Shown: one piece after another, positions 13,647 to 15,273 of the stretch
Position numbering within the stretch: position 1 is the first letter of the stretch
Layout: each line of letters begins with the position of its first letter
From: a virus
Taxonomy: Duplodnaviria; Heunggongvirae; Uroviricota; Caudoviricetes
IMG/VR virus record: IMGVR_UViG_2663763326_000011
Strand: one strand, 5' to 3'
DNA: 17,950 nt
The notes under the pieces: generated by a model
Database searches by the model: none
Told to the model about the DNA's origin: nothing
Seen by the model: the letters and a program-made list of their open reading frames with translations, nothing else
Position numbers and translations under genes: made by a program

Positions 13647-13670
13647 GGCCACGGATGGCCTCAATCTTTA
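13647..13670 (+). terminator. Weak hairpin plus T-rich tail between convergent genes
   Basis: GGCCA (13647-13651) / TGGCC (13656-13660) 5-bp stem with 4-nt loop, then a T-rich tract. Lies in the 19-bp gap between the 11524..13641 stop and the convergent 13661 stop. Confidence 0.3.
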
Positions 13671-14086
13671 TTCTTTGAAATAGAGTCATTGATCTTTTCG
13701 AAACACCAATGAAATCCACAAAAGAGAGCTACACCAATATAACAATACAAAACTATCAACCACCTTTCAGTGTCCGAAGGGTAAAAAACATCAATTACAT
13801 AAGCAACACCAATTGGTATTAATGCTAGTAATAACATCGACACAGGACGTACAAACTTCTGAACTATATCAATTTTATAGAACCACAAGGCGGTATGTTT
13901 AATGATATAAGTAAAGATGGCTGCGCCAATAATGGCAAAAAACACCATCGATAAAGTCGGGTATAACTTTGCGACAATTAAACCCAACAAAATAATTATA
14001 ACTGCCTGCCCCCTCACACCAACCCTCCCTTTAGCTTTGTTTAGAATGGCAATCATCATATATCCAAGACATGGCATTTGGTACAT
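13661..14086 (-). CDS. Predicted multi-pass inner-membrane protein (3-4 TM helices); start uncertain
   Basis: Hydrophobic segments QAVIIILLGLIVAKL, MVFFAIIGAAIFTYII, MLLLALIPIGVAYVIDVF, WLIVLYCYIGVALFCGF. The ORF-track start at 14257 is a GTG inside a GC-rich repeat/palindrome region; internal ATGs at 14086, 14077, 14059 are more plausible, none with a strong SD. Confidence 0.5.
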   Translation of the reverse strand: MYQMPCLGYMMIAILNKAKGRVGVRGQAVIIILLGLIVAKLYPTLSMVFFAIIGAAIFTYIIKHTALWFYKIDIVQKFVRPVSMLLLALIPIGVAYVIDVFYPSDTERWLIVLYCYIGVALFCGFHWCFEKINDSISKNKD

Positions 14087-14129
14087 AGCTTGGGTCAGGA
14101 TTTCAAATCCGATCCCGTTGATGGGGTCG

Positions 14130-14560
14130 TTACAGTACGCGCATATCCGCTTTATGTGAAACAGGAAGATTTTTCTGATATCACTGCCACAGCAAAACAC
14201 CAATTTCGTGACCAGTACGCGCGCGAGGGGTATCAGTTGCAAAAATTTTGCAACCACGTCCGACCAGTACGCACACGATGGCGGGGGATACCATGAAACT
14301 GTTCTCTACACGAGACAGAGTGGTGGTGATGTGTTGATTATCGGCGTATGTGCGCACAGGACGCGCTATGACGATGTTTTATGCGGGTACACCATCACAT
14401 GTATCTGGTGTGATCAATCGCGTTACATGACATCTCATGTTGTGCTGGTGATTATCACGACGTTCTGAATCTGGCCTTTGCCTGATATTTTGCGACAAGT
14501 ACGCGCGCGTAGCATCGACAGCATACACATTGGATATTCATTTTGTGACCAATGCGATAA
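14130..14560. repeat. GC-rich repeat region: about 16-nt motif GAC(C/A)AGTACGC(G/A)C(G/A)CG x3 plus related copies, and a 19-bp palindrome
   Basis: GACCAGTACGCGCGCG 14210-14225; GACCAGTACGCACACG 14262-14277; GACAAGTACGCGCGCG 14494-14509; partial copies near 14133-14145 and 14541-14558. Palindrome GTTGCAAAAATTTTGCAAC at 14236-14254. Several alternating purine-pyrimidine tracts. Confidence 0.6.
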
Positions 14561-14738
14561 GTAGCGGGATAAGAATTGATAAAATCAACAGGACGATGAT
14601 CCACTTTTGATTCTCGTCCATCTTATCTGCTAGGCGACGCTCCATTCCGTGCATATCACCGCGAATGGCAATCATCTCATTGCGAACATCCGAGAAGTGG
14701 TTGGCTTGATGTTCAATGTGTGGCGTTCTGCCTTTCAT
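14538..14738 (-). CDS. Small tail-anchored membrane protein (66 aa): charged/helical N-terminal region plus C-terminal TM helix
   Basis: SD-like AGGTGAGGA upstream of the ATG on the minus strand. C-terminal WIIVLLILSILIPLLIALV is a single TM segment. Architecture resembles holin-like/XhlA-like small proteins; family not established. Confidence 0.55.
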   Translation of the reverse strand: MKGRTPHIEHQANHFSDVRNEMIAIRGDMHGMERRLADKMDENQKWIIVLLILSILIPLLIALVTK

Positions 14739-14817
14739 GTCTGATCCTCACCTATCGTCACCACCTGCTGGTGTATAAAGGTATTAGCCCAAGCAGCTTC
14801 CCAATGGGCACTCATGT

Positions 14818-15273
14818 TTATACGCTGACCTTACAATCAATCACCGCTTTTAACTTTTCAGCATTGCTTCCCTGACGCTTCCACGCGCTGTAAATATCTT
14901 TATCCCACGCTTTACCAGCTTTTGTTTGATAGCCTGCTTCATTGATCCGTTCAGCTATCACACGCCCATTATCAAATCCCTGTTGGATGGTATCGGCAAT
15001 GATCTTTATAACTGCCGTTTCGTTATATGGTTTTGGTGGGATGTTCGGCTTTCCGGCAATAAGCGACGCAGCGGCTTTTTCCATGCGCTCCACCAGCCCA
15101 AGCATTCGTGAATCAATAGACTTTTCCGGCTGCCCCAGCTTCATGCGAATCGCATCAACAAGCCAAGAGGTTTTATCTCCTCCAGAAGCGAGAACAGACC
15201 GATTAAACTCATCCTGCAATTCAGATGGGATGCGGAACGCGATCAGATTAGATTTGCTCATTGCAAAGACCAT
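14818..15273 (-). CDS. Putative ribbon-helix-helix-domain DNA-binding protein with ~100-aa C-terminal extension
   Basis: N-terminal SKSNLIAFRIPSELQDEFNRSVLASGGDKTSWLVDAIRMKLG fits the Arc/CopG/MetJ RHH pattern. Alternative start at 15261 (MSKSN...). Transcribed divergently from the 15533 gene, with iteron cluster 2 in between. Confidence 0.55.
   Translation of the reverse strand: MVFAMSKSNLIAFRIPSELQDEFNRSVLASGGDKTSWLVDAIRMKLGQPEKSIDSRMLGLVERMEKAAASLIAGKPNIPPKPYNETAVIKIIADTIQQGFDNGRVIAERINEAGYQTKAGKAWDKDIYSAWKRQGSNAEKLKAVIDCKVSV

Follow-up and report, generated by a model that had tools for sequence, protein, structure and literature searches.

Among described mobile elements, the closest to the DNA analysed here is EcCIMP1, a phage-inducible chromosomal island (PICI) of Escherichia coli MP1 for which the P22-like phage Kapi1 serves as inducer and transducing helper (PMC11773190). 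Helper-dependent excision, replication and transfer have been demonstrated for EcCIMP1 alone; its transduction efficiency is very low, it carries neither a recognisable defence system nor a terminase, and it contributes to superinfection immunity against Kapi1 by a mechanism that is not explained in the published work (PMC11773190). A second point of reference is superinfection exclusion by SieA, a protein family of three types (A–C) with a cytoplasmic FxRYPxEAxxFNK motif, which blocks DNA injection by P22-like phages and which phages escape through mutations in gp16 or gp20 (PMC10883804). Thirdly, satellites and prophages carry accessory and defence hotspots, among them the PICI region downstream of pri (PMC11364771) and the hotspots of P4 and P2 (PMC13586616). 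Here we examine a stretch of 17,950 nucleotides (IMG/VR record IMGVR_UViG_2663763326_000011; "the window" throughout), and in particular three of its genes, read leftward between positions 13661 and 15273, that encode a DNA-binding protein with a ribbon-helix-helix (RHH)-like N-terminus, a 66-amino acid (aa) membrane protein, and a second membrane protein with several transmembrane (TM) segments.

E. coli EcPF7 carries, between yicC and yicG, a 17.9-kb island with 99.98% identity to the window; two 1-nt indels are the sole differences between them. The RefSeq annotation of the EcPF7 locus lists a tyrosine integrase, an AlpA-like helix-turn-helix (HTH) protein, AntA/B, Ash, an Icd-like protein and a TOPRIM/DUF927 primase, as well as homologues of gp20 and gp16, three minus-strand genes, PerC and a 254-aa protein. 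EcCIMP1-like islands are characterised by such a gene set (integrase, AlpA, primase and PerC within ~17–20 kb, and no capsid or terminase genes) and, judged by it, the window is an EcCIMP1-like PICI of E. coli. EcCIMP1 and the window have in common int, AlpA, AntA/B, Ash, Icd, the TOPRIM/DUF927 primase, the P22-like ejection genes and PerC, together with a block at 14.1–14.5 kb that is present in EcCIMP1 at 95% identity. The two differ in that (i) EcCIMP1 lies at tRNA-Thr, between proA and yagU, rather than between yicC and yicG, (ii) EcCIMP1 has a plus-strand lipoprotein gene and AlpA_1 in place of the window's four-TM, 66-aa and RHH genes, and (iii) EcCIMP1 has kept gp14- and gp7-like genes that are missing from the window. 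Such gp14- and gp7-like genes occur in sister islands too.

The order of genes around the three leftward genes follows that of the immI-left/sie region of P22. In P22 (NC_002371), the rightward gene 16 faces a leftward series of sieA, orf59a and mnt; in the window, a rightward gp16 homologue faces a leftward series of the four-TM gene, the 66-aa gene and the RHH gene. The window's homologues of the P22 ejection proteins gp20 (451 aa; PHROG 917) and gp16 (705 aa; PHROG 770/6704) are encoded on the plus strand at 10184–13641. Hence, in both elements, a gene-16 homologue, a multi-TM protein, a small open reading frame (ORF) and an RHH-type regulator occur in equal order and orientation, with a divergent promoter region beyond; ~400–500 bp of non-coding DNA lies upstream of the membrane gene in both; and, in sister islands, a true SieA homologue takes the place of the window's membrane gene. 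There are also differences: the window's 118-aa membrane protein has no detectable similarity to SieA and no SieA motif; the 66-aa protein and orf59a are unrelated; the RHH protein is distinct from Mnt, with a length of 147 aa, an additional HTH-like domain at its C-terminus and perC, not arc-ant, as the gene that it faces; and the window's element is a satellite, not a phage.

Taken as a whole, we think it somewhat probable that this is a sie-like region, composed of a backbone regulator and two cassettes, that excludes P22-like phages at the stage of DNA entry. The two parts of that statement differ in strength. The architecture, which is read from homologies, cassette exchange and the positions of homologues in prophages, we hold with high confidence. 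The proposal that the two small membrane proteins act in exclusion is more tentative, with a chance that approaches even; it involves their presumed expression, membrane location and activity.

A preliminary description of this DNA placed three leftward ORFs on the minus strand at 14818–15273, 14538–14738 and 13661–14257, and all three are found there. They converge on the plus-strand gene-16 homologue, with stop codons that lie 19 nt apart. Those 19 nt (13642–13660) contain a short GGCCA/TGGCC inverted repeat that was not called by our consensus scan and that is possibly a bidirectional terminator.

Comparison with sister islands (20 related loci) separates the three genes from one another. 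Between the two membrane genes lies a conserved non-coding block of 506 bp (14013–14518), the boundaries of which are sharp and common across the 20 loci, while both flanks vary. The window carries a four-TM gene of type 4TM-A in the slot to the left of the block and the 66-aa gene in the slot to its right. In the sister island L103, 4TM-A is combined with genes for a 145-aa and a 318-aa protein; in L097, the 66-aa gene is combined with a gene for a 204-aa SieA-like protein; and in L005, the 204-aa SieA-like gene is combined with AbiD. Across 5426 complete E. coli genomes, the block is present in 545 (at 94% identity or more), the block plus the 118-aa allele of the window in 87, and the whole arrangement (13400–16100) in 39. 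By this pattern of exchange, the three leftward genes are a conserved regulator gene plus two exchangeable membrane-protein cassettes, and not one dedicated system.

The left-slot cassette of the window (13661–14017, minus strand, convergent with the gene-16 homologue) encodes a 118-aa protein with four predicted TM segments. It had been described as a protein with three to four TM segments, encoded by a 198-aa ORF from 14257 and preceded by a 280-bp, GC-rich, repeat-laden leader. Four segments are predicted by a Kyte-Doolittle scan and the repeats are present; the start of the gene, and with it the length of the leader, must be moved. A GTG codon at 14017–14015 lies downstream of a ribosome-binding site, AAGGGAGGG, and an ORF begins at the position of this GTG in 18 of the 20 related loci, where it opens four unrelated ORF types. 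Further, a 2-nt deletion upstream of the GTG disrupts the longer (198-aa) frame in L005, and a Salmonella prophage homologue has only ~25 nt in common with the island DNA (the ribosome-binding site and the GTG), the upstream DNA not being shared. On this comparison, the membrane protein is one of 118 aa from GTG 14017, not one of 198 aa from 14257. Because the gene starts at this GTG, the non-coding stretch before it measures ~520 bp (14018–14537) rather than 280 bp. Its richness in GC is marginal: 0.49 for 14258–14537 and 0.47 for 14018–14537, against 0.46 for the window.

The 118-aa protein belongs to an orphan family. A search of 5.8 billion proteins returned 9 matches, exhaustive HMMER on 1.84 billion representatives returned 6, and a tblastn search of phage records returned none. 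A Salmonella homologue (45% identity) is found in genuine P22-like prophages, where its gene lies directly after, and convergent with, gene 16 and precedes mnt/arc/ant and the tailspike gene; this is the position of sieA. The 118-aa gene of the window is likewise convergent with a gp16 homologue, as is sieA. SieA proteins are integral inner-membrane proteins with three to four TM helices; for the 118-aa protein, four TM segments are a hydropathy prediction only.

Other islands carry other cargo in the left slot. In L005, L097 and L105, the same block, ribosome-binding site and GTG are followed by the 204-aa protein, which is homologous to P22 SieA (BLASTP: 29% identity over 108 residues, E = 8e-8), retains the core of the motif (RYPGEA), and has extra N-terminal TM segments like those of the described type B. 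The alternatives in the left slot are the 118-aa four-TM protein, a 116-aa four-TM protein, the 204-aa SieA homologue and a 132-aa signal-peptide protein; in EcCIMP1 the slot holds the plus-strand lipoprotein gene and no minus-strand gene. Left-slot cargo is always an envelope protein, whether four-TM, SieA-like, equipped with a signal peptide or a lipoprotein. The 118-aa and 116-aa four-TM proteins have their first 20 residues in common (75% identical) and are unrelated thereafter; the mosaic joint lies within the four-TM gene, directly after the first TM segment (window 13955–14017, compared with L004, L094, L096 and L099–L104).

The right-slot cassette (14538–14738, minus strand) encodes the 66-aa protein, a predicted tail-anchored membrane protein with a TM segment at residues 47–65; the hydropathy scan finds this single C-terminal segment, in agreement with the preliminary description. 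The protein matches PHROG 6324, a family without assigned function (E = 3e-15), and its 37 homologue clusters come from E. coli, Citrobacter and Leclercia. Homologues with 63–68% identity are encoded in the mnt operon of E. coli P22-like prophages, which runs, towards gene 16, from mnt through genes for a 121-aa Zn-ribbon-like protein, the 66-aa homologue and another small membrane protein. Against phage records, tblastn gave weak matches in four Klebsiella phages only. In sister islands, the right slot may instead hold AbiD/Abi_2 (in L005: Pfam E = 2e-52, PADLOC E = 6e-58), a pair of genes for a 145-aa TM protein and a 318-aa protein, or AlpA_1. The 145-aa and 318-aa proteins, encoded in the right slot of L004 (4896–6302) and of L103, have no Pfam or PADLOC match; sharing a slot with AbiD, they may be an undescribed defence pair.

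The third leftward gene (14818–15261, minus strand, divergent from perC) coincides with a RefSeq coding sequence and encodes a putative DNA-binding protein with RHH-like and recombinase-like HTH parts. An RHH-domain protein of 151 aa had been proposed; the ORF stands, and its length is revised to 147 aa. The start is most likely ATG 15261, as judged from an N-terminal MSKS or MNKS in 23/23 aligned homologues and from the agreeing RefSeq start. The protein has at least 365 homologue clusters (63–99% identity) in Escherichia, Salmonella, Klebsiella, Enterobacter, Serratia, Pantoea, Erwinia, Pectobacterium and other Enterobacterales; no match was obtained among phage records (tblastn). Its C-terminal segment DNGRIIAERLNEAGYQTKAGKAWDKDIYSAWKRQG is nearly invariant among homologues, its C-terminal domain is modelled by AlphaFold2 with a pLDDT of ~90, and 21 of 24 family members have matches, below threshold, to HTH_62/Recombinase. 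For the N-terminus, the indications of an RHH fold are weak but consistent: PHROG 30270 matches residues 5–49 (E = 3.7e-4); hhalign places the protein in register with P22 Mnt (FRIP/FRMP; E = 0.0039, with a probability of only 8.5%); the AlphaFold2 monomer has helices at 13–25 and 30–41, at low confidence; and one homologue is labelled "Arc-like DNA binding domain protein" by its source. The Pfam RHH families gave no match.

In Serratia and Klebsiella, the RHH gene stands at an island end, where it adjoins Abi_2 and a DprA-like pair, respectively; it therefore borders a cargo hotspot in other genera also. From its distribution, the RHH gene is a backbone gene of these islands. Just upstream of it, overlapping palindromes, TACAGTATACCACTGTATAACACTGTTATAC, can be read at 15292–15322; they are a plausible candidate for its operator.

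These elements can be assembled into a mechanism. The region would form an accessory "entry-control" end of an EcCIMP1-like satellite, built like 16/sieA-orf59a-mnt of P22. The backbone DNA-binding protein, with its RHH-like N-terminus and recombinase-like HTH C-terminus, is encoded divergently from perC and probably autoregulates at the palindromes upstream of its gene. The right slot would supply a tail-anchored inner-membrane protein of 66 aa; the left slot would correspond to the sieA slot and, placed after a 506-bp block that provides ribosome-binding site and start codon, would supply the orphan 118-aa four-TM protein. Both small membrane proteins would be made in the resident island, be inserted in the inner membrane and there stop incoming P22-like (helper-type) phages from delivering DNA via the gp7/gp20/gp16 conduit.

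In its fixed backbone flanks and rapidly exchanged cargo, which includes known defence genes such as AbiD, the region resembles the accessory hotspots of other satellites and prophages. It departs from them in three ways: two slots lie side by side, with a conserved non-coding block between them; in one of these slots, the cargo is joined to a ribosome-binding site and a start codon that do not change; and the cargo consists mostly of small envelope proteins that are common to the sieA region of the helper-type phage.

Several points weigh against exclusion at DNA entry. Neither small protein resembles any experimentally characterised exclusion protein. For the 118-aa protein, BLASTP against P22 SieA gives E = 1.7 and FxRYPxEAxxFNK is absent (the 204-aa protein of L005, the positive control, gives E = 8e-8 and has RYPGEA); because this sequence test failed, we file the protein as a positional analogue of SieA, not as a member of the family. 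EcCIMP1 is the sole member of the group with a measured phenotype and is without both cassettes, so its immunity cannot be credited to them. Expression of the cassettes in a resident island is presumed, and a consensus scan yielded neither a sigma-70 site nor a terminator that would define the transcript. The TM counts rest on a crude hydropathy scan. Searches of PADLOC-DB v2, Pfam and NCBIfam gave nothing above threshold for the three proteins (the AbiD of a sister island, as a positive control, was matched by PADLOC at E = 6e-58). Finally, the TOPRIM/DUF927 primase gene of the window is split into two ORFs (6391–7245 and 7281–9146) by a 1-nt deletion, relative to EcPF7, in a run of G at 7236–7239. 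The island copy may be decaying, or this may be a homopolymer sequencing error; if the frameshift is real, the window copy cannot replicate. Among the matches below cut-off, those to Pfam Bax1-I (E = 9e-5) and NCBIfam CBO0543 (E = 5e-5) were set aside as compositional similarity between multi-TM proteins.

The 506-bp block admits more than one explanation. Its left end is the ribosome-binding site and GTG of the left-slot gene; EcCIMP1 retains 430 bp of it, having lost the ribosome-binding site, the GTG and the minus-strand cargo. The block contains three direct repeats (families D1–D3, read on the plus strand) with the core GACMAGTACGC: ATTTCGTGACCAGTACGCGCGCG at 14203–14225, GACCAGTACGCACACGATGG at 14262–14281 and ATTTTGCGACAAGTACGCGCGCG at 14487–14509. 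Between the first and second copies lies a 19-bp palindrome, GTTGCAAAAATTTTGCAAC (14236–14254), the A/T centre of which varies in length among islands. With RNA fold z-scores of only -0.64 and -0.74 on the two strands, the block gives no sign of a structured RNA, and an Rfam search of 13000–17300 at a permissive E-value gave two chance-level matches only. A 21-mer of the block was found once, in an unrelated context, among 185,579 species-representative genomes, and the block therefore looks confined to E. coli. A distant blastn search for diverged copies in E. coli found none, and since all E. coli copies are at least 94% identical, the conservation of the block may reflect recent spread rather than selection. 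Neither the module nor the block matched any of 50,697 phage records by megablast or distant blastn. One metagenomic contig (L102; IMG/VR 3300045988_004969) joins 7.8 kb of Kapi1-like terminase-to-needle genes to ejection-protein genes, and continues with the 116-aa four-TM cassette, the block and an EcCIMP1-like alpA_1; it represents either a block-carrying P22-like phage or a chimeric assembly formed via the shared ejection-protein genes.

Of the explanations of the block, the one that fares best, though it falls short of probable, is that it serves as promoter, operator and 5' leader of the sieA-slot cargo, or else as a neutral spacer or recombination anchor, with its repeats acting as operator sites for a regulator of the island or the helper. 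The block's left end does provide ribosome-binding site and GTG for four unrelated cargo genes, P22 has ~410 bp of non-coding DNA, with PsieA, upstream of its sieA, and direct repeats around a palindrome resemble an operator. Set against this are the lack of a sigma-70 consensus on the minus strand of the block, the retention of 430 bp in EcCIMP1 without ribosome-binding site, GTG or minus-strand cargo, and the length, since 500 bp is long for a leader and carries no RNA-structure signal.

Mimicry of a helper's pac or cos site by satellites is known from SaPIbov5-type pac/cos sites and from cos-carrying E. coli PICIs. A satellite without its own terminase must present its helper's signal, and the block's repeats match a site in helper terS; the present case differs from those precedents in that the likeness consists of only a 14–18-nt sequence match. 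Such a role for the block, in which the repeats copy a site in the helper's Sf6-type terS (and perhaps a P22-type pac as well) to let the helper terminase begin headful packaging of satellite DNA, the cargo genes merely flanking it, is possible because EcCIMP1 keeps the block after losing the ribosome-binding site, the GTG and the minus-strand cargo; we consider it unlikely, and the evidence only suggestive. The Sf6 pac site is said to lie within the part of terS that encodes the DNA-binding domain (Leavitt et al. 2013). The expectation that a helper pac site would lie within terS was recorded before the block was compared with Kapi1. In the 39-kb Kapi1 genome, the best short match to the block is inside terS (nt 172–189), the only such site: repeat 3 contains a 14-nt exact match to the Kapi1/Sf6-type terS (14/14 bases) and repeat 1 matches at 16/18 positions. 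It is this matching motif of which the block has three copies; a match of at least 14 nt to terS arises in 3 of 2000 Markov shuffles; and GACAAGTACGCGAA is invariant in 57 terS sequences (Kapi1 and 56 distinct variants), synonymous positions included. In addition, a 22-mer at 14165–14186 (plus strand) shares 16/22 bases with P22 pac, a weak match to a sequence partly confirmed in PMC9611059; it falls in the block's longest invariant run (67 nt, 14142–14208). EcCIMP1-like islands have no terminase genes, their packaging mechanism is unexplained (PMC11773190), and EcCIMP1, which is transduced, keeps the block despite loss of the cargo-starting end.

Other points weigh against it. The 14-mer is unremarkable against the whole Kapi1 genome, where 41 of 300 shuffles reach 14 nt; terS has other invariant runs, and conservation at synonymous sites across the 57 sequences does not single out the matched site; the comparison was made with the terS gene and not with a mapped Sf6 or Kapi1 pac sequence; block copies at least 94% identical may, again, only reflect recent spread; and transduction of EcCIMP1 is very inefficient. 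We rate a packaging signal as no more likely than a promoter/operator leader or a neutral anchor for recombination.

A broader version of the packaging proposal, which we rate as rather improbable, treats the whole of 10.2–15.3 kb as one "entry and packaging control" unit, made up of the island's own gp20/gp16 alleles, the exclusion cassettes and the 506-bp array of pac-mimicking repeats. In that case the orphan four-TM family would be a fourth, non-homologous type at the sieA locus, and the unit would, if real, explain how terminase-less EcCIMP1-like PICIs are packaged. 

The gp20 and gp16 homologues of the window are 75% and 41% identical, respectively, to their Kapi1 counterparts, and the region also matches Kapi1 by megablast. 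That the satellite has gp20 and gp16 homologues of its own suggests that it provides the DNA-delivery conduit or competes for it; conceivably, the island's alleles bypass SieA-type exclusion in recipients with helper prophages.

A rival model, which builds on the preliminary description, treats the three genes as a single co-transcribed system: under the control of the RHH protein, two membrane effectors would kill the infected cell or make it permeable, by abortive infection or in the manner of a holin. They do share a strand, with short gaps and no predicted terminator; AbiD occupies the equivalent slot of sister islands; and the 66-aa protein has a weak holin match (PHROG 689, E = 0.024). 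That match is, however, the only one to a holin family and has no Pfam counterpart, no endolysin or spanin gene lies near the 66-aa gene, and its homologues sit in the mnt operon of prophages. Otherwise, profile searches (including Pfam, PHROG, NCBIfam and PADLOC) matched no holin or known defence family. Moreover, the three genes assort independently from one island to another, other genera retain the RHH gene beside unrelated cargo, the 506-bp backbone block stands between the membrane genes and persists where no cargo follows it, there is no PADLOC match, and homologues of the 66-aa and 118-aa proteins are not seen together in the P22-like prophage loci examined. The earlier guess of superinfection exclusion or abortive infection fits the genomic context (a sieA slot, an AbiD slot and homologues in prophages); the single module, given independent assortment, we regard as improbable.

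Equally improbable is the view that the block is a decayed plus-strand gene and the small membrane genes hitch-hiking remnants without current function: RefSeq sometimes calls a 124–128-aa plus-strand ORF in the block, and a 126-aa version is intact in several islands (the window has fragments of 72 and 86 aa), but the three codon positions have taken substitutions evenly (3/4/4 and 5/2/1), islands differ in several 1-nt indels, the RefSeq C-termini are inconsistent, the ORF has no Pfam or PADLOC match, the block has no six-frame similarity to P22-like regions, and the 118-aa and 66-aa ORFs are intact, with prophage homologues conserved at 45–68% identity. A protein-coding plus-strand gene in the block was ruled out on the indels, the even substitutions, and the lack of a family match or six-frame similarity.

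Beyond the RHH gene lies iteron cluster 2 (15372–15503), composed of TGTTGGTTCA repeats and an inverted copy of a cluster at 9165–9285. The whole accessory segment that follows the primase gene lies between the two clusters (~121 bp each, ~78% identical, the second taken here as 15394–15503), in an arrangement reminiscent of ori/crr of P4. The adjacent PerC-family regulator gene (15533–15820, plus strand; Pfam PerC, E = 2.6e-33) is divergent from the RHH gene. It is followed at 15990–16754 by the gene for the 254-aa protein, which matches a PHROG annotated "peptidase HslV family" (E = 2.8e-13); in strain E1316, which has the island at the identical site, dinD lies at the position of this gene. 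Lastly, a circular record of 12,152 bp that was deposited as a plasmid (NZ_CP148430.1; L001) contains a related island from which the equivalent of window 10612–14862 is missing; that part comprises the bulk of the ejection-protein genes, the two cassettes and the block. The record probably represents a PICI after excision.

About 10% of the complete E. coli genomes have an EcCIMP1-like island. The authors of the EcCIMP1 study were left with two questions, namely the source of the added superinfection immunity and the means of packaging without terminase genes (PMC11773190). According to the present analysis, these islands have a sieA locus of P22 type whose cassettes can be exchanged; in the loci compared, it is filled by a true SieA homologue, by a member of one of two orphan four-TM families or by a secreted protein. 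A second slot, beside the sieA locus, can hold AbiD, and the block between the two slots has repeats that resemble a site in helper terS. The best-supported interpretation is that the region is a defence/exclusion hotspot on a phage satellite, a kind of locus that is already known and that appears here in a new form, and its new small membrane proteins may target the gp7/gp20/gp16 DNA-delivery conduit.

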